21,732 nt of DNA from a virus (taxonomy: Duplodnaviria; Heunggongvirae; Uroviricota; Caudoviricetes), in the IMG/VR virus record IMGVR_UViG_2663763286_000005, positions 1 through 21,732 of that record. One strand, 5' to 3'. The position numbers and the translations under genes were made by a program. Each line of letters starts with the position of its first letter. Position 1 is the first letter of the stretch. Under the pieces are notes generated by a model that was not told where the DNA came from, made no database searches, and saw only the letters and a program-made list of their open reading frames with translations. Positions 2,740-20,836 of the stretch are shown here, piece after piece.

Positions 2740-3173
2740 GCAGAGTAACCGCGATTATCTCCGCTCTGGTTATCTGCATCATCGTCTGCCTGTCGTGGAC
2801 GGTCAATCATTACCGTGATAACGCCATCGCCTATAAAGAGCAGCGCGATAAGGCCACATCCACAATCGCTGACATGCAGAAGCGTCAACGTGATGTAGCT
2901 GAACTCGATGCCAGATATACAAAGGAGCTTGCTGATGCTAACGCGACTATCGAAAGTCTCCGTGGTGATGTTTCTGCTGGTCGTAAGCGCCTGCAAGTCG
3001 CCGCCACCTGTGCAAAGTCAACGCCCGGAGCCAGCGGCATGGGCGATGGAGAAAGCCCAGGACTTACAGCAGATGCTGAACTCAATTATTACCGTCTCCG
3101 AAGTGGAATCGGCAAGATAACCGCGCAGGTTAACTACCTGCAGGAGTACATCAGGACGCAATGCCTTCGATGA
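2736..3173 (+). CDS. Rz: i-spanin Rz
   Basis: 145 aa with an N-terminal transmembrane segment and coiled-coil region, similar to lambda Rz. ATGA overlap with R. Confidence 0.9.
2935..3120 (+). CDS. Rz1: o-spanin Rz1 lipoprotein, embedded in Rz in the +1 frame
   Basis: AAGGAG at 2922-2927 sits 7 nt before ATG 2935. Signal peptide with lipobox VVSAC, then a Pro-rich mature part ([13 protein letters not shown]). The ORF opens at 2908 but 2935 has the proper ribosome-binding site. Confidence 0.8.
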
Positions 3174-3347
3174 TAGCGATAATTTTACTCATCATCCTTC
3201 ACATCTGGCTCTGTAGACAGGGTGGTGATCACTTCTGGAGTAAATCCAGATTAAACATCTCATTGCTGATGCTTGATATTGAGCATCTTGCGCGCGGTAA
3301 GGGGCTGCGTTGAGATAAGAGCCAGTCATTACAAATACCAGGATTTA

Positions 3348-3373
3348 GCCTCGCATTCGCGGGGCTTTTTATT
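3348..3373 (+). terminator. intrinsic terminator downstream of the lysis cassette
   Basis: Stem gcctcgc/gcggggc with loop attc, followed by ctttttatt. Confidence 0.5.
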
Positions 3374-3391
3374 GCAACAAAGGTAAAGACG

Positions 3392-3679
3392 ATGGATGAA
3401 GAATATCGTAAAGACCTGCAACTGTGGTTTGGTCTTACGCATGCGCCGTTCTGCGTGATGCCGCGAGTATTCATGGAGGCTATGCCGCCAGAATGGCAAG
3501 AGAAGATGGCTCAGTTGCTTTTTGAGTATAGCGACACAATCAAAACGGATGTCTGCGGAGTTCACAGCTGTTTTGTTACTGCCAAAGACGGCAACAACCG
3601 CTTTATGAGGATGCCAGAAGATATTCTGAACTATCGTCATCCCCGACGTGAATTCATCGAATCAGTTCTGAAGAAGTAG
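3392..3679 (+). CDS. hypothetical Cys/His-containing protein
   Basis: 95-aa ORF with a ribosome-binding site (aaggtaaag) upstream. Contains 3 Cys and several His (FCVMPR, DVCGVHSCF). No family recognised. Confidence 0.55.
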   Translation: MDEEYRKDLQLWFGLTHAPFCVMPRVFMEAMPPEWQEKMAQLLFEYSDTIKTDVCGVHSCFVTAKDGNNRFMRMPEDILNYRHPRREFIESVLKK

Positions 3680-3965
3680 CCATTACAAAGCCTATCTACG
3701 GGTGGGCTTGATAATGAAACCAGAGTTTATTCTTGGCAACCAGTTACGGCAGTACAGCGAAACAACCCAAGCCAGTAAGTGGGGAAATAACACTGGCAGC
3801 CACTGAAAGATGAACCCCCTGCCTTATGGCAAAAAAGATTCTTTGTGGTGGCGGACTGATGGAAAGACATCGGATAGAATAAAACAGTGGCTAGGGTAGC
3901 TCCCGAAAAGCGGAATCGTCACCGCCAGCCACTGAATCTATGACGAACAACTAGACGAGGTTGAT

Positions 3966-4124
3966 ATGAGTGAAATTGATAAAATAATAAATGGTACATG
4001 TAACTTTCAATCAATACCGCCAGGTAGTTATGTAAAACAATGTAGTGAAATAGTTAATGGTCAGCTTGTAATGTCAAATGCAGGACGCGGAGTTTTTCTA
4101 CGGATGAAAAAAATCAATAAATGA
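3966..4124 (+). CDS. hypothetical small protein (52 aa) in AT-rich island
   Basis: ATG at 3966 preceded by gagg 7 nt upstream. AT-rich codon usage unlike its neighbours. Below the ORF-track size cut-off, translated by hand. Confidence 0.3.
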   Translation: MSEIDKIINGTCNFQSIPPGSYVKQCSEIVNGQLVMSNAGRGVFLRMKKINK

Positions 4125-4355
4125 AGCCCTGTTAAGCATCAATGTTTTTGACTTGTTTCGCCCATCTTGGGTTATCTTGCAAAATAGTAGCCAATTCCCA
4201 CATTATTGATAATTAATTATTAAATTGGTCGCTAAGTCGGCCTTTTTTATTGCCATCACAAAAGCCATTCCCTACAGAGTGGCTTTGATAATGGCTTATA
4301 CCCTACACGGGATAACTTAACTGATATCCCTTTTAACGGATAAACGGAGCCAACA

Positions 4356-4598
4356 ATGGCAGAGATTATTCCCATGACTGAAGAACAGAAATTCAAGTTA
4401 GAAATTTACCGACTGCTATCTAAGAACAATTCAGCGGCAGAGGAGGCTTTTGCATTCATTGGTGCTGACCAGTTGAAACTGGAATTGTTCAAGTTGCACT
4501 ACAACGATGGCGGTGCAAATCCAGACTTCACATCTCGCACTATCGAAGCGGTGCGTAAATCGAAGGAAGCGTTAGACCTGTTCACTACCGGAGCATAA
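4356..4598 (+). CDS. hypothetical protein upstream of terminase
   Basis: 80-aa ORF with acggag 8 nt before the ATG. Same strand and spacing as the packaging genes. Confidence 0.5.
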   Translation: MAEIIPMTEEQKFKLEIYRLLSKNNSAAEEAFAFIGADQLKLELFKLHYNDGGANPDFTSRTIEAVRKSKEALDLFTTGA

Positions 4599-4677
4599 AC
4601 ATGGCAACTCAAGGTTTCGACAACCCATCCAAATTCCGCGATGAATGGGATAAGCAAGCAGAAGGGAAATAATCAAT

Positions 4678-5103
4678 ATGGCGACTGAGAAAAAGAAAGG
4701 TGGTCGCCCCTCTGATTATATGCCGGAGGTGGCTAATGACATTTGCGCATTGCTTTCCTCCGGTGAGAGTCTGCGCAAAGTTTGCGAACGCCCAGGAATG
4801 CCGAGCAAAACATCAGTTTTTCGCTGGCTGGCTGAACATCAGGAGTTTCGTGACCAGTACGCGAAGGCAACAGAGACTCGGGCCGACTCTATTTTCGAAG
4901 AGATATTCGAAATTGCTGACGACGTAATCCCTGATGCCGCCGAGGTGGCAAAGGCAAGACTTCGCGTTGATACCCGCAAATGGGCGCTGGCCAGAATGAA
5001 TCCCCGTAAGTATGGCGACAAGGTAACTAATGAGCTTGTCGGCAAAGACGGCGGCGCAATCCAGATTGAAACATCACCTATGAGCACTCTATTCGGAAAA
5101 TGA
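4678..5103 (+). CDS. terS: terminase small subunit (Sf6 gp1-like)
   Basis: 141 aa, recalled as highly similar to Shigella phage Sf6 gp1 (MAT...GRPSDYMPEV...). Directly precedes and overlaps TerL. Confidence 0.9.
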   Translation: MATEKKKGGRPSDYMPEVANDICALLSSGESLRKVCERPGMPSKTSVFRWLAEHQEFRDQYAKATETRADSIFEEIFEIADDVIPDAAEVAKARLRVDTRKWALARMNPRKYGDKVTNELVGKDGGAIQIETSPMSTLFGK

Positions 5104-6515
5104 CCTCGATTAATCCTATCTTTGAACCGTTCATTGAGGCGCATCGCTACAAAGTCGCCAAAGGCGGTCGAGGTAGCGGTAAGTCATGGGCAATTGCGAG
5201 ACTGCTTGTTGAAGCGGCGCGTCGGCAGCCAGTGCGTATTCTCTGCGCTCGTGAACTGCAAAACAGTATCAGCGATTCGGTAATCCGGTTGCTTGAAGAT
5301 ACCATCGAGCGTGAAGGGTATTCGGCTGAGTTTGAAATTCAGCGTTCAATGATTCGTCATCTCGGAACGAATGCTGAATTCATGTTCTACGGCATCAAAA
5401 ACAACCCGACGAAGATTAAATCGCTCGAAGGTATTGATATCTGCTGGGTGGAAGAAGCGGAAGCGGTAACGAAGGAATCATGGGATATCCTGATACCAAC
5501 CATCCGTAAGCCGTTCTCTGAAATATGGGTGAGCTTTAACCCGAAAAACATCCTCGACGATACCTATCAGCGATTCGTCGTAAACCCTCCTGATGATATT
5601 TGTCTGCTGACGGTGAACTACACCGACAATCCGCACTTTCCTGAAGTTCTCCGTCTGGAGATGGAAGAGTGTAAACGCAGAAACCCGACACTGTATCGTC
5701 ACATCTGGCTTGGTGAGCCGGTAAGCGCAAGTGATATGGCAATCATCAAACGTGAATGGCTTGAAGCCGCAACCGATGCGCACAAGAAACTCGGATGGAA
5801 AGCGAAAGGCGCTGTTGTCTCTGCGCATGACCCGTCAGATACAGGACCGGATGCTAAAGGTTATGCATCGCGCCACGGTTCGGTAGTTAAGCGCATTGCC
5901 GAAGGCTTGCTGATGGACATCAATGAAGGTGCTGACTGGGCAACTTCGCTGGCGATTGAAGACGGCGCTGACCATTACCTGTGGGATGGTGATGGCGTCG
6001 GTGCGGGGCTACGCAGACAGACAACGGAAGCGTTCTCCGGCAAGAAAATCACCGCCACGATGTTCAAGGGCAGCGAATCGCCATTCGATGAAGATGCACC
6101 GTATCAGGCCGGAGCATGGGCTGATGAAGTCGTACAGGGCGACAACGTTCGCACTATTGGCGATGTGTTCCGCAATAAGCGAGCGCAATTCTATTACGCG
6201 CTGGCTGACAGGCTGTATCTGACATATCGGGCGGTTGTCCACTGTGAGTATGCAGACCCCGACGACATGCTGAGTTTCGACAAAGAAGCGATAGGCGAGA
6301 AGATGCTGGAGAAGCTGTTTGCAGAACTGACGCAGATTCAGCGCAAATTCAATAACAACGGGAAGTTGGAGCTAATGACTAAGGTCGAAATGAAGCAGAA
6401 GCTCGGTATTCCATCTCCTAACCTGGCTGATGCGCTGATGATGTGTATGCATTGCCCGGAGTCGGCTGCGCAACCCGACTATTCCAGTTACTCAATTCCT
6501 TGTGGTGTAGGTTGA
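5100..6515 (+). CDS. terL: terminase large subunit (Sf6 gp2-like)
   Basis: 471 aa with Walker A GGRGSGKS and a C-terminal nuclease region. Sf6 gp2-like from memory. Confidence 0.95.
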   Translation: MTSINPIFEPFIEAHRYKVAKGGRGSGKSWAIARLLVEAARRQPVRILCARELQNSISDSVIRLLEDTIEREGYSAEFEIQRSMIRHLGTNAEFMFYGIKNNPTKIKSLEGIDICWVEEAEAVTKESWDILIPTIRKPFSEIWVSFNPKNILDDTYQRFVVNPPDDICLLTVNYTDNPHFPEVLRLEMEECKRRNPTLYRHIWLGEPVSASDMAIIKREWLEAATDAHKKLGWKAKGAVVSAHDPSDTGPDAKGYASRHGSVVKRIAEGLLMDINEGADWATSLAIEDGADHYLWDGDGVGAGLRRQTTEAFSGKKITATMFKGSESPFDEDAPYQAGAWADEVVQGDNVRTIGDVFRNKRAQFYYALADRLYLTYRAVVHCEYADPDDMLSFDKEAIGEKMLEKLFAELTQIQRKFNNNGKLELMTKVEMKQKLGIPSPNLADALMMCMHCPESAAQPDYSSYSIPCGVG

Positions 6516-11012: not shown

Positions 11013-11201
11013 ATGGCACGAACAATGCTCTATAAGCCTGGCAACATGATCACCTGTGGTCAGTTTGCTGTCGATTACATCATTGTTGATGACGAAGAAG
11101 TTAAATCTCACCTGAAAAAAGGCTGGGTAAAAACTCCTGAAGAAACCGCAACGAAGCAAAAAGTGGCTAAGGCGGAAGAAGATGGCGAAAACGAAGGGTG
11201 A
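11013..11201 (+). CDS. hypothetical small protein (62 aa)
   Basis: ATG at 11013 with gggagaag upstream. The ORF-track start at 10974 lies inside the terminator hairpin, so the internal Met is preferred. Overlaps the gp4 start. Confidence 0.45.
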   Translation: MARTMLYKPGNMITCGQFAVDYIIVDDEEVKSHLKKGWVKTPEETATKQKVAKAEEDGENEG

Positions 11202-11643
11202 TCTCGTTCTTAAGGCTTTGCGAAAAGCCGGGCTGTATTCCAATGCCACGTTGACAGATGCCGACCCTCAGGAAATTGAAGATGCCATTAATGACCTCGA
11301 AGACATGATGGCAGCATGGCAGGCTAAAGGTATCGAGCTTGGGTATCAGTTTGCTGATACAGAAAACGGCATGATGCCGTTACCGGACGATGATTCAGGT
11401 ATCCCTGCATGGGCAAATGATGGCGTCGCTTTGAAACTCGCTGTGCAAGTGTGCATGGATAACGTCATTCAGCCGTCAGACGCTCTCCTTACCGCTGCTG
11501 ACAGTGCATATCAGACAATCTGTATCGCTTTAACCAAAATACCACCACTTGAGCGGCGAAATGACATGCCTCGCGGTAGTGGTAACAAAAGCGCGTTTAC
11601 GTGGAATCGGTTTTACATCGAGAAAGATGATCCGAGTACGTGA
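11182..11643 (+). CDS. tail accessory factor (P22 gp4-like)
   Basis: 153 aa. N-terminus KTKGDLV..ALRK..ATLTD and C-terminal MPRGSGN recalled from P22 gp4. Correct position. Confidence 0.75.
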   Translation: MAKTKGDLVLKALRKAGLYSNATLTDADPQEIEDAINDLEDMMAAWQAKGIELGYQFADTENGMMPLPDDDSGIPAWANDGVALKLAVQVCMDNVIQPSDALLTAADSAYQTICIALTKIPPLERRNDMPRGSGNKSAFTWNRFYIEKDDPST

Positions 11644-11652
11644 GGTGAATAA

Positions 11653-13071
11653 ATGACGATTCAGCAACTTCCGCTTATGAAAGGTGTCGGCAAAGACTTC
11701 CGAAACGCCGACTATATCGACTATCTGCCAGTGAATATGTTGGCTACACCCAAAGAAATCCTGAACAGCAGCGGATATCTTCGCTCATTCCCGGGCATTG
11801 CCAAACGTTCTGACGTGAACGGTGTATCTCGCGGCGTCGAGTACAACATGGCGCAGAATGCTGTTTATCGCGTGTGTGGTGGGAAGCTTTACAAAGGCGA
11901 AAGTGAAGTCGGTGATGTTGCCGGAAGTGGTCGCGTATCAATGGCGCATGGTCGGACATCACAGGCGGTAGGCGTTAATGGTCAACTGGTCGAGTATCGC
12001 TATGATGGCACGCTTAAAACAGTATCAAACTGGCCTACAGACAGCGGATTCACGCAGTATGAGTTAGGTTCGGTTCGTGACATTACGCGTTTACGTGGGC
12101 GTTATGCGTGGTCAAAAGACGGCACTGATTCATGGTTTATCACTGACCTTGAAGACGAATCGCATCCTGACCGTTACAGCGCACAATATCGTGCCGAGTC
12201 TCAGCCGGACGGCATCATCGGTATCGGAACATGGCGAGACTTCATCGTCTGCTTTGGTTCATCGACGATTGAATATTTCTCCCTGACTGGTGCAACCACC
12301 GTTGGTGCCGCTTTGTATGTCGCACAGCCATCACTGATGGTGCAGAAAGGGATTGCCGGAACCTACTGCAAAACGCCGTTTGCTGATTCGTATGCGTTCA
12401 TCAGCAATCCGGCAACAGGTGCGCCGTCTGTATACATCATTGGCTCCGGTCAGGTGTCACCAATCGCCAGCGCGAGCATTGAGAAAATCCTCCGCTCCTA
12501 CACTGCTGATGAACTGGCTGATGGCGTGATGGAGTCTCTGCGATTTGATGCTCATGAGTTGCTGATTATCCACCTTCCGCGCCACGTCCTCGTGTACGAC
12601 GCATCTTCAAGCGACAATGGTCCGCAATGGTGTGTGCTGAAAACAGGCCTGTATGACGATGTGTACCGCGCTATAGACTTCATTTACGAAGGCAATCAGA
12701 TAACGTGCGGCGATAAGCTGGAATCTGTTACCGGGAAATTGCAATTCGACATCAGCAGTCAGTACGACAAGCAGCAGGAACATATTTTATATTCTCCTTT
12801 AATAAAGGCAGATAACGCTTTAATAAATGACCTTGAATTAGAAACATCGGGCGGCGTGTGTGATAGAATAGATAAAATATTTATATCAGCCACTACAGAT
12901 GGAATTAGTTACGGTCGTGAGCAAATGGTCGTATTACAAAAACCATTTGTATATGACAATCGCGTTTTATGGCGAAAAGTTGGTCGAGTTAGACGCCTCA
13001 TTGGATTTAAATTCAGAGTTATTGCAAAAGGTCCTGTTACATTATCAGGCCTTTCTATTCGTGTAACATAA
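11653..13071 (+). CDS. tail accessory factor (P22 gp10-like)
   Basis: 472 aa, the same length as P22 gp10, in the right position. The last ~290 nt are markedly AT-rich. Confidence 0.8.
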   Translation: MTIQQLPLMKGVGKDFRNADYIDYLPVNMLATPKEILNSSGYLRSFPGIAKRSDVNGVSRGVEYNMAQNAVYRVCGGKLYKGESEVGDVAGSGRVSMAHGRTSQAVGVNGQLVEYRYDGTLKTVSNWPTDSGFTQYELGSVRDITRLRGRYAWSKDGTDSWFITDLEDESHPDRYSAQYRAESQPDGIIGIGTWRDFIVCFGSSTIEYFSLTGATTVGAALYVAQPSLMVQKGIAGTYCKTPFADSYAFISNPATGAPSVYIIGSGQVSPIASASIEKILRSYTADELADGVMESLRFDAHELLIIHLPRHVLVYDASSSDNGPQWCVLKTGLYDDVYRAIDFIYEGNQITCGDKLESVTGKLQFDISSQYDKQQEHILYSPLIKADNALINDLELETSGGVCDRIDKIFISATTDGISYGREQMVVLQKPFVYDNRVLWRKVGRVRRLIGFKFRVIAKGPVTLSGLSIRVT

Positions 13072-13092
13072 ATCGAAACTAAAGGAGTAGAT

Positions 13093-13638
13093 ATGTTGAG
13101 TGAAAACGCAAAAGATATTCCTGGGTATGAAGGTTTATATGCCGTAACAGAGGATGGGCGAGTATATTCTCACTCACGTGTTGTTAAAGCTGCGCATGGC
13201 AGCACGCAACTCAGAAAGGGGCGGTGGCTAAAACAACACGAGAATAATAAAGGTTATCTATATTTGCCACTTAGTGTTGATGGAGTTAAAGTAAAATGGC
13301 TTGTGCATAGGCTTGTCGCTCTTGCTTTCGTCCCCAATCCAGAAGGCAAGCCGTTCATAAATCACATAGATAACAACCGAAAAAATAATAATGCTTCTAA
13401 TTTAGAGTGGTGTACTCAAAAGGAGAATATGAAGCATTGCTCATCTCAAGGTAGGGTGAAGTTTCCGGCTTTAAAAGGAGAAAATAATCCAATTTCAAAG
13501 CTATCATATGAGCAAGTAATAGAAATAAAGAAATCAAAGGGAGTTAATCAAAGAGAGCTTGCTAAAAAATACTGTGTCAGTCAGACGGTGATTCACAATA
13601 TCCAGTCTGGTAAATCGTGGAGGCATGTTAATGGCTGA
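13093..13638 (+). CDS. HNH homing endonuclease (NUMOD4-like N-terminus, HNH core, C-terminal helix-turn-helix)
   Basis: 181 aa. [16 protein letters not shown] motif, then HRLVALAF...[29 protein letters not shown] 6 nt before the ATG. AT-rich relative to flanks. Confidence 0.85.
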
Positions 13639-14332
13639 TTCGAATCTCAATGTGCCGGTAATCATCCAGGCTACGCGGCTCGATACATCAATCCTTCCAC
13701 GCAATATATTCAGTCAGTCTTACCTGCTGTATGTCATTAATCAGGGGGCTGATGTCGGCGCAATTGCCGGGAAGGCAAATCAGGCTGGTCAGGGCGCTTA
13801 CGATGCTCAGGTGAAAAACGATGAGCAGGATGTCGAACTGGCTGATCACGACGCAAGAATCACCGCAAACACAAAAGCGATAAATCTACTTGAGGTCAGG
13901 TTAACAACTGCCGAAGGGAAGATAGTCGTACTGCGTAGCGATGTTGATTACTTGCTGGATGAGGTTATCGATATTCAGGCGCATCTGGTCACTGTTGACC
14001 AAAGACTGGATGACGTAGAAAACAATGTCTCTGGCATTAAGAGTGATTACGTATCGAAAACCGTAACCGAATTGCAGTCTCTTGAATCACCGCTGGATGT
14101 AAAAACATCATATTCAGTTGATGGAATTCAGGTTGTTGGAGCAAGAAATACCGGATGGACTGCAGCCACAGGTACGCCACTTCTTGGCTCATTCAACGCA
14201 AACCAGTCATACACTGTCGGCACTACGTACACGCAATCCGAAGTCGCAGCTCTCGCTACAGGTTTGCAGCAGGCGCGGCAGCGTATTCTGGCGCTTGAAA
14301 CGGCACTTAGATTACATGGGCTGATTGACTGA
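13631..14332 (+). CDS. tail needle (P22 gp26-like)
   Basis: Recalled match to P22 gp26 at both ends ([18 protein letters not shown]...YLLYVI...RLHGLID). Start chosen at ATG 13631 (ggagg 8 nt upstream) rather than 13625. Confidence 0.9.
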
Positions 14333-18811: not shown

Positions 18812-19201
18812 CTAACATTTTCTTTTTACTTTTCCAACAAAAGCTTTGGTTGAATCCATATTTCCATAACCGGAAATGGTTTTTGACATTAAAACTGTTC
18901 CAGTAGGATGTATTACCCATGAGTCGATAACGCGTTGAGTTTCGCCATTCGCGCCGATTCCTATGATGGAGTTTTTAGACAATGCTTTGTAAGCCATGCC
19001 GCCCGCATCTGTCCCAGAATATGTGATGCTGGCATCTTCACCGCTTGTCTTAATGATGAATGTTCCACTAAAACCATCTTCTTCCGGATGGAAATTATTT
19101 CGTTCTGAATAGCTTATTCCGCGCATATCTCCAACGACCCAGCACTCTGCTGTAGCCCCAAAAGATATGAATAAGAACATAGCAGCAAGAAATTGCTTCA
19201 C
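18812..19201 (-). CDS. hypothetical secreted protein (accessory)
   Basis: GTG start at 19199-19201 with AAGGAGG 5 nt upstream on the minus strand. Signal peptide MKQFLAAMFLFISFGATA. Cys near both ends of the mature part. Opposite strand to the virion genes. Confidence 0.6.
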   Translation of the reverse strand: MKQFLAAMFLFISFGATAECWVVGDMRGISYSERNNFHPEEDGFSGTFIIKTSGEDASITYSGTDAGGMAYKALSKNSIIGIGANGETQRVIDSWVIHPTGTVLMSKTISGYGNMDSTKAFVGKVKRKC

Positions 19202-19318
19202 ACCAACCTCCTTAGTTTTGAGCAGGATACCATGAAAAAAGTAAACATCTTTTGCCTACTTCACATTTGAATGGTTTGTCATTAGGATGTTTCCGGTTTT
19301 TTAAATATGGAAATTGAT

Positions 19319-19738
19319 ATGAAGAGGATTATTGGCGTCGTTGCTGGCGCTATGATGTTATCTGGGTGCGCAACTATTGTTGGTGATGAAACGCAACTTG
19401 TGCAAGTGAACAGCAACCCTTCCGGTGCGAGCTTTAAGGTAAAAGATGAATCAGGCGTGATTGTTGCGCAAGGCAAGACTCCACAAGGAGTAACTCTTGC
19501 CAAGTCAGATGGTAGTTATTTTGGCAAAAAGAGCTACCAGATCACTATGGAAAAGGATGGGTACGAACCAGTTACCCTGCCAATCAAAGCCAATGCCAAT
19601 GGTTGGTATATTGGTGGAAACCTTGTGTTTGGTGGGTTAATTGGTTGGCTTGCTGTTGATCCATTTAATGGTGGGATGTATACACTGAAGCCAAAAGAGG
19701 CAAATGCATCTCTTATACCTTCCACGAAGCAAGATTAA
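19319..19738 (+). CDS. hypothetical lipoprotein (accessory)
   Basis: Signal peptide with lipobox LSGC (MKRIIGVVAGAMMLSGC). Gly/Trp-rich hydrophobic C-terminal segment. An alternative start at 19307 exists. Followed by a strong terminator. Confidence 0.7.
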   Translation: MKRIIGVVAGAMMLSGCATIVGDETQLVQVNSNPSGASFKVKDESGVIVAQGKTPQGVTLAKSDGSYFGKKSYQITMEKDGYEPVTLPIKANANGWYIGGNLVFGGLIGWLAVDPFNGGMYTLKPKEANASLIPSTKQD

Positions 19739-20329: not shown

Positions 20330-20584
20330 TTATTTATCATCCTTGCCATAAATCTTTTTAAGTGTCTCAAACACAACAGTCTTGAACTGCTCTGCCTGCT
20401 GATCAGCCAAGCGTTCAGCTTCGTCGCGATAGCCAGTCACAGGCGATGGTTTTGATAGAGCATCTTGGACGATTTGTAACAACTCGGAGTTCATTGATCT
20501 CCCATTCGCCTCCGCCCTGAATTTTAATTTCTCCCTTACTTCCATAGGCATACGGAAGTTAAAGTGCGGATCATCTCTAGCCAT
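20330..20584 (-). CDS. mnt: Mnt repressor (P22 immI)
   Basis: 84 aa, N-terminal ~55 residues recalled as near-identical to P22 Mnt (ARDDPHFNFRMPMEVREKLKFRAEANGRSMNSELLQIVQDAL...). Divergent from arc. Confidence 0.95.
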   Translation of the reverse strand: MARDDPHFNFRMPMEVREKLKFRAEANGRSMNSELLQIVQDALSKPSPVTGYRDEAERLADQQAEQFKTVVFETLKKIYGKDDK

Positions 20585-20606
20585 GCCATCACTCCAAGTT
20601 AGTGTA

Positions 20607-20635
20607 TTGACATGATAGAAGCACCCTACTATATT
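20607..20635 (+). promoter_or_regulatory. Pant promoter
   Basis: TTGACA at 20607-20612, 17-nt spacer, TATATT at 20630-20635. Matches the P22 Pant layout. Confidence 0.75.
20612..20632 (+). promoter_or_regulatory. Arc operator
   Basis: 21-mer atgatagaagcaccctactat between the -35 and -10 of Pant. One difference from the P22 operator as recalled. Confidence 0.7.
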
Positions 20636-20641
20636 CTCAAT

Positions 20642-20658
20642 AGGTCCACGGTGGACCT
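20642..20658 (+). promoter_or_regulatory. Mnt operator
   Basis: 17-bp palindrome aggtccacggtggacct, matching the P22 Mnt operator. Confidence 0.85.
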
Positions 20659-20674
20659 ATGCTGTGAGGTGAAT

Positions 20675-20836
20675 ATGAAAGGAATGAGCAAAATGCCGCA
20701 GTTCAATTTGCGGTGGCCTAAAGAAGTATTGGATTTGGTCCGCAAGGTGGCGGAAGAGAATGGTCGGTCTGTTAACTCTGAGATTTATCAGAGAGTAATG
20801 GAAAGCTTTAAGAAGGAAGGGCGCATTGGCGCGTAA
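20675..20836 (+). CDS. arc: Arc repressor (P22 immI)
   Basis: 53 aa, matches P22 Arc as recalled ([52 protein letters not shown]). ORF-track start 20612 is upstream of the real start. Confidence 0.95.

Follow-up and report, generated by a model that had tools for sequence, protein, structure and literature searches.

A probable intron-less homing cassette linking an HNH endonuclease gene to a divergent gp10 end in P22-like phages of Escherichia coli

The Bacillus phages SPO1 and SP82 encode the HNH homing endonucleases I-HmuI (Protein Data Bank (PDB) entry 1U3E) and I-HmuII. These enzymes act as nickases, driving homing and excluding the flanking markers of competing phages. In T4 and other phages, free-standing HNH genes lie beside essential genes and their flanks are co-converted, as with T4 mobE between nrdA and nrdB (PMC2790892; PMC2988022; PMC10448857). 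Homing endonuclease genes (HEGs) have also been described at the boundaries of genetic exchange and beside essential genes, including in so-called HEG-islands (Barth et al. 2023, PMC10448857). Here we describe a comparable arrangement in a 21,732-nucleotide (nt) stretch of phage DNA, IMG/VR record IMGVR_UViG_2663763286_000005 (hereafter the window). A low-GC (guanine plus cytosine) block of approximately 850 base pairs (bp; ~12783–13630) comprises the last 95 codons of gp10, a 21-nt spacer and an HNH gene (allele A, HNH-A), and is probably a mobile cassette that spreads by intron-less homing.

HNH-A resembles I-HmuI in its layout: a strand motif (NUMOD4) at the N-terminus precedes the HNH ββα-metal motif. 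I-HmuI sits in a group I intron of a DNA polymerase gene, whereas HNH-A is free-standing between virion genes, and the C-terminal DNA-binding region of I-HmuI could not be aligned, so that the target of HNH-A cannot be deduced from it. The Mob (HNH) and Seg (GIY-YIG) genes of T4-like phages also resemble the cassette: they are intron-less, carry their own translation signals, lie between conserved essential genes, vary in presence among close relatives and move with flanking DNA. However, their hosts are virulent myoviruses, whereas those of the cassette are temperate P22-like podoviruses, and the domain partner of Mob proteins is a zinc finger, unlike in HNH-A. The flank of the cassette also differs: it replaces a gene end over a long tract (~290 nt), is low in GC and saturated, and is fixed in every carrier. 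HEG-islands likewise place HEGs beside or within essential structural genes and show domain swapping between HEGs, but the window holds a single HNH gene, on the downstream side, and its cargo is one gene or gene end rather than more than 10 kilobases (kb). Unlike the terminase-associated HNH proteins of the HK97 gp74 type, the window gene does not lie beside terminase or portal genes and is missing from most close relatives. RefSeq entries named 'NUMOD4 domain-containing protein' or 'HNH endonuclease' in E. coli prophages correspond to HNH-A (for example in strain SMN013SH2) or its alleles, found at this position in dozens of genomes, with an annotation that names the domain only. Neither the cassette structure nor the linkage to the gp10 end was described in the literature searched, which did not include the main comparative papers on P22-like phages, so that an earlier description is possible.

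Sliding-window analysis of the gp10 region revealed an abrupt change in composition. GC content in 150-nt windows was 0.51–0.55 at 12300–12650, fell to 0.34–0.40 at 12750–13100 and 13250–13600, and had returned to 0.47–0.52 by 13600–13700. The 847-nt cassette had a GC content of 0.377, the minimum of the window for that length (next lowest elsewhere, 0.405; window mean, 0.48). Within gp10, the 3' end (12783–13071) showed a GC content of 0.35 and a third-codon-position GC content (GC3) of 0.20, against a GC3 of 0.54 in the 5' part. Identity to phage HK620, calculated without gaps in 90-nt windows, was 0.93–0.99 up to 12688, 0.78 at 12733 and 0.54–0.61 from 12778 to the gp10 stop; the first divergent base lay at ~12783, where the composition switch and the homology break coincide. 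At the protein level, gp10 was 98.9% identical to its HK620 counterpart over residues 1–360 and 61.5% identical over residues 377–472. The initial annotation, which had proposed an AT-rich switch at approximately 12780, roughly 290 nt before the gp10 stop, and a chimeric gp10 C-terminus, was accurate on both points. In HK620, CUS-3, Sf6 and P22, gp10 abuts or overlaps gp26 (the tail needle gene) with no gene between them, and the window exceeds these endonuclease-free phages by ~560 bases at that junction.

Resident sequence returned at ~13627–13631, where TAATGGCTGAT is common to the window and the uninterrupted HK620 gp10/gp26 junction. The initial annotation had placed the return to normal composition exactly at the needle start, and the right edge agrees with this. 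The needle ATG at 13631 and the HNH stop codon TGA (13636–13638) overlap by 8 nt; this ATG, rather than the first in-frame ATG at 13625, is most likely the needle start, because homology to HK620 gp26 (702 nt) and the RefSeq annotation of relatives both place it there. Since the last HNH codons supply the needle ribosome-binding site and overlap the needle start, the needle gene plausibly remains coupled.

The HNH gene is an open reading frame (ORF) of its own, located after the gp10 stop and ahead of the needle gene, and has its own ribosome-binding site, the strength of which had been recognised from the outset. Profile searches with the 181-amino acid (aa) product returned NUMOD4 (PF07463; residues 7–60, nt 13111–13272; E 2.4e-11; 44.1 bits, cut-off 23.4) and HNH_3 (PF13392; residues 70–113, nt 13300–13431; E 1.7e-10; 40.8 bits, cut-off 24.8), both above the Pfam cut-offs, together with PHROG 59 'HNH endonuclease' (E 3e-58); none of the HNH alleles is represented by a model in NCBIfam. 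The sole significant relative of solved structure was I-HmuI (E 2.3e-12, residues 7–152), whose H75, N87 and N96 aligned with conserved H, N and N residues of the query, the catalytic His (general base) among them. From these matches, the product is predicted to be an I-HmuI-like HNH endonuclease (NUMOD4 plus HNH_3). A match to HTH_3 at residues 144–174 (nt 13522–13614) scored 17.3 bits, below the cut-off of 23, and PDB matches of the C-terminal region to helix-turn-helix proteins were weak (E 0.05–0.7). The single-sequence AlphaFold model was too poor for use (predicted local distance difference test score 45.5), with helices predicted at residues 139–172. A helix-turn-helix at the C-terminus is possible.

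Searches with the AT-type gp10 end (12784–13071) as query revealed strict linkage to HNH genes. Among complete E. coli genomes, 56 contained this end (52 with no less than 96% identity and four with 86%), and an HNH gene followed it directly in all 56 (16 allele A, 36 allele B and 4 allele C). In IMG/VR, A, B or C lay directly downstream in 27 of 27 loci, an HNH gene followed in all eight complete metagenome loci, and the isolated phage HZ41 likewise carried the AT-type end together with an HNH gene. AT-rich gp10 ends without an endonuclease, which the initial annotation had named as evidence that would speak against its reading, were looked for and none was found in these 56, 27 and 8 loci; in particular, none of the loci showed an AT-type end joined straight to the needle gene. 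Approximately 914 E. coli genomes matched the gp10/needle region, so the 56 with the cassette represent roughly 6%. Several copies were interrupted: IS1 lies at or near HNH-A in strain M160133 (NZ_CP022164.1), an insertion splits HNH-B in ETEC6333 and ETEC6334 (NZ_CP122600.1, NZ_CP122604.1), and ~780 extra bases separate the gp10 stop from HNH-A in locus L020 (3286–4094).

Comparison of the HNH alleles showed that different genes occupy the same slot. HNH-B (WP_000947776.1, 177 aa) begins directly after the gp10 stop and spacer, HNH-C (WP_042048397.1) has 181 aa, and alleles A, B and C share 44–56% protein identity with one another. One gp10 end (at least 96% nt identity) was tied to two HNH alleles that are 51% identical, and the 86% variant was tied to the third. 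At the DNA level, similarity between A and B was confined to the spacer and the two gene ends (~40 nt at the start, ~25 nt at the end); the last ~25 nt were near-identical in A and B and slightly less so in C, and the spacer was conserved 5' of A, B, C and a further HNH gene, HNH-D, found at the other end of gp10. The HNH genes are, as judged from these alignments, modular. A and D were also similar (82–93%) over the spacer/ribosome-binding site and the first ~190 nt, and divergent thereafter (window 13070–13232 compared with L004 1501–1664). The left boundary of the block fell into two classes, one at ~12753 with all B alleles and some A alleles, and one at ~12783 with the window, the other A alleles and all C alleles.

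In diverged relatives, the gp10 3' block was closer to the window than the gp10 5' part was: 95.8% and 83.5%, respectively, in L026, 93.1% and 82.5% in L032, 86.5% and 77.0% in L031, and 80.9% and 65.7% in L035. HNH-A of L031 was 89.6% identical to that of the window. Between the endonuclease-free phages P22 and HK620, both gp10 parts diverged together (0.85 and 0.80). The GC content of the cassette was 0.34–0.42 in every background and that of the gp10 5' part was 0.48–0.52. The cassette occurred with two gp4 types (~98% or ~40% aa identity) and several needle types, and polymorphisms immediately left of the block were of HK620, Sf6, P22 or another type, depending on the locus. The history of the cassette is thus discordant with that of its flanks, which points to horizontal spread. 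The ratio of nonsynonymous to synonymous substitution rates (dN/dS) was 0.04–0.07 for HNH alleles A, B and C (0.05–0.07 for allele A against its diverged copies), values indicating that the HNH genes are under purifying selection.

Synonymous sites were saturated between AT-type and ordinary gp10 ends. Recoding of the gp10 end beyond saturation was considered and rejected, as identical codons at conserved residues numbered 18 observed against 16.7 in shuffled sequences (HK620 comparison). GC3 was 0.20 in the AT-type end, compared with 0.37 in gp10 of Proteus phages. No donor with a wholly AT-type gp10 was found among phages by tblastn (best non-carrier 67% aa identity, Proteus phages), in a set of one genome per species (best 67%, Symbiopectobacterium) or among 1.84 billion representative proteins (best non-carriers 59–65%), the last being clustered at 50% identity, which would mask any donor more similar than this to P22 gp10. 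In metagenomes, only carriers were recovered and no full-length AT-type gp10; with none in the searched sets, the gp10 end is known solely as part of the cassette. This end may reasonably be modelled as a transfer from an AT-rich donor. The arrival of an endonuclease gene with flanking donor sequence, as first proposed, fits the presence of the linked flank in all carriers, but a single-step arrival oversimplifies, given that one gp10 end is paired with differing HNH alleles. The donor was not found. One apparent intermediate (P0002, 77%) proved to be an artefact: it derives from an indel-ridden metagenome contig of the window's own phage (99.7% nt identity); in its source, L151 (ENA ERZ1759873 contig_137, 4026–6006), frameshifts leave fragmentary gp10 and HNH proteins.

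Other HNH genes were observed around gp10 in relatives. Salmonella phage UPF_BP1, E. coli K56-43-un and 27 IMG/VR loci carry HNH-D (195 aa) at the gp4/gp10 boundary, always in the order gp4, a 32-codon gp10 5' stump, HNH-D and a complete gp10 (L004, 1383–2165; L009, 697–1489; L052–L078, ~2860–3650). The first ~120 nt of the gp10 that follows HNH-D were 64–67% identical to the ordinary allele, as measured in UPF_BP1 and K56-43-un, and the gp10 start overlaps the 3' end of HNH-D by ~52 nt; the annotated gp10 of UPF_BP1 is 36 codons too short. HNH-E (164 aa) occupies the gp10/gp26 junction in phage vB_EcoP-683R2 (L003, 2922–3416) and in L070 (4954–5445). Annotated as 'endolysin', it matched HNH_3 (E 4e-16) and, weakly and below threshold, AP2; it is unrelated to allele A (23% identity). 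At the HNH-E loci, gp10 is changed only in its last ~20–40 nt, and the native gp10 end (AGGATTGAGTAATGG) is reused as the C-terminus of the HNH-E ORF. gp10 is bracketed by D upstream and A or B downstream in K56-43-un, L017, L022, L025, L056, L072 and L153, and the D and E combination also occurs among relatives.

The window is a P22-like (Lederbergvirus) late operon of virion genes, and the host of the cassette is a P22-like phage or prophage of E. coli; the features of the cassette region are listed in Table 1. The nearest sequence among isolated phages was Escherichia phage HZ41 (96.4% over 11653–14332), and the nearest prophage was that of E. coli SMN013SH2 (NZ_CP023673.1; 99.9% over 12500–13900). 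Putative terminase genes lie at 4678–6515, ~7–8 kb upstream of the HNH gene, and homologues of gp14, gp7, gp20 and gp16 are found past the needle gene. A promoter and terminator scan of 12500–13900 gave no more matches than shuffled sequence and thus no support for a separate transcription unit.

Table 1. Coordinates of the cassette and neighbouring features in the window
Feature	Position	Strand	Evidence
gp4 (tail accessory / head-tail adaptor)	11182..11643	+	PF11650, E 1.5e-40
gp10, whole (head closure / DNA stabilisation protein), 472 aa	11653-13071	+	PF11134, E 3.5e-283
gp10, resident E. coli-type part, codons 1-377	11653..12782	+	94-95% nt to HK620, CUS-3, Sf6; GC 0.51
gp10, foreign AT-rich 3' end, codons 378-472 plus stop; left part of cassette	12783..13071	+	56-60% nt to HK620, CUS-3, Sf6, P22
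21-nt spacer with ribosome-binding site AAGGAG (13082-13087), 5 nt 5' of the HNH ATG	13072..13092	+	direct reading
Free-standing HNH endonuclease gene (predicted), allele A, 181 aa	13093..13638	+	Pfam, PHROG and PDB matches
Right junction: needle ribosome-binding site GGAGG (13619-13623) within the last HNH codons	13619..13638	+	direct reading
Tail needle gene (gp26), resident sequence again	13631..14332	+	phrog_1219, E 1e-112; 93.9% nt to HK620 from 13629

Additional features were noted elsewhere in the window. Its gp4 is one of two types, the gp4 of relatives being either 97–99% or ~40% identical to it at the aa level, and it matched HK620 gp4 at 72% nt identity over a short stretch; because both types lie beside near-identical gp10 genes, the gp4/gp10 junction is a sharp mosaic boundary. 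A second low-GC island (0.36–0.41 in 300-nt windows) at 3800–4500, upstream of the putative small terminase gene (4678–5103), contains only short ORFs (52 and 80 aa). Beyond the gp16 homologue, at 18812–19738, two small ORFs have signal-peptide-like N-termini as judged by eye: that at 18812–19201 is on the minus strand, and a lipobox-like LSGC motif is present in that at 19307–19738. At 20330–20836, two divergently oriented, ribbon-helix-helix-like small ORFs resemble, again by eye, the Arc/Mnt pair of P22 immI. Locus L078 was 88–93% identical to the window, counting aligned stretches only.

If the cassette moves by homing, an endonuclease-free relative would share a cell with a carrier, through mixed infection or superinfection of an induced lysogen, and the late-expressed enzyme would nick or cut the relative's ordinary gp10 3' region or its gp10/gp26 junction. 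Repair templated by the carrier genome would then copy the HNH gene together with the gp10 end by obligate co-conversion between the cut site and the gene, and the carrier's own gp10 end (57% identity), which would have no recognition site, would render the carrier immune. The divergent tract lies on the left side only, which suggests that the nuclease target is in the final ~290 nt of the ordinary gp10 gene. Several observations weigh against homing. Both endonuclease activity and homing are inferred from sequence, and the residue equivalent to the I-HmuI metal ligand D74 is Asn in the NUMOD4 alleles A–D. The donor of the gp10 end was not found, and the interrupted copies show that not every cassette is maintained. 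The left boundary has just two classes, and many independent homing events might leave scattered endpoints, although the block is too diverged for internal crossovers, which would fix its edge.

The two boundary classes also favour an ordinary mosaic module, in which a gp10 C-terminal segment and an HNH 'moron' entered once from an AT-rich relative and were later shuffled by general homologous recombination. The nuclease would then have no part in the spread, and the linkage would reflect adjacency and a block that offers no internal homology. Mosaicism is plain among the P22-like virion genes here, with two gp4 types and several needle types beside the same gp10; the modest frequency of the cassette (56 of ~914 E. 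coli genomes) also fits. We nevertheless consider this origin unlikely. A functionless passenger should decay, yet the dN/dS values are low, and conservation across backgrounds is higher in the cassette than in its flanks. Furthermore, three HNH alleles occupy exactly one slot between the same flanks, and unrelated HNH genes lie at the same junction (E) and at the other gp10 end (D), each with a recoded gp10 piece; such recurrent insertions at gp10 are predicted by nuclease targeting and unexpected for a single chance insertion.

The strong purifying selection and the turnover of alleles within constant flanks would equally suit a weapon of competition or exclusion, whereby the late-expressed HNH enzyme damages co-resident related phages with an ordinary gp10 end and makes them less productive, immunity is conferred by the resistant gp10 end linked to it, and A, B and C reflect an arms race of specificities. 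I-HmuI and I-HmuII, the nearest characterised relatives, reportedly exclude the markers of a competing phage (Goodrich-Blair and Shub 1996, cited in PMC10448857). An intron endonuclease also mediates interference between co-infecting phages (PMC11620839). Sequence cannot separate this function from homing, because one cleavage event yields both outcomes, and as an alternative to homing we regard it as distinctly improbable. The location of the gene within the virion-assembly operon could instead indicate an accessory factor for packaging or morphogenesis, like the terminase-assisting HNH proteins of HK97-like cos phages. This is extremely improbable: P22-like phages package DNA by a headful mechanism, the gene is flanked by gp10 and the needle gene, far downstream of the terminase genes, and its architecture (NUMOD4, HNH_3 and a possible HTH) and best structural match are of the homing-enzyme type. 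The gene is also absent from ~94% of related E. coli prophages and from P22, Sf6, HK620 and CUS-3, and its dispensability in close relatives effectively refutes this explanation.

A broader and more tentative proposal, which we think doubtful, is that gp10 is a recurrent battleground of competing nucleases, each HNH gene carrying a portable recoded copy of the gene end under attack. If so, the recoded end would serve as both immunity and functional replacement, alleles of new specificity would displace others within constant flanks, and the recoded pieces would be those of ~290 nt at the 3' end (A, B and C), ~18 nt (E) and ~120 nt at the 5' end, where a 32-codon stump is left over (D). The cassette would then be a system of competition between temperate phages, beyond a passive parasite.

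The cassette probably represents a further free-standing phage HNH homing endonuclease, the gene of which is already automatically annotated in RefSeq, and it leaves the understanding of homing endonucleases unchanged. It draws attention to two annotation problems, the 'endolysin' label of HNH-E and the ambiguous needle start. For studies of specificity, it provides nucleases of three alleles along with targets presumed to be resistant or susceptible. The chimeric gp10 is viable, as HZ41, deposited as a waste-water isolate, carries the cassette. For the P22-like phages, a well-studied group, the cassette explains one mosaic boundary, and it provides a natural example of a homing-type nuclease gene moving a segment of an essential virion gene between temperate enterobacterial phages.

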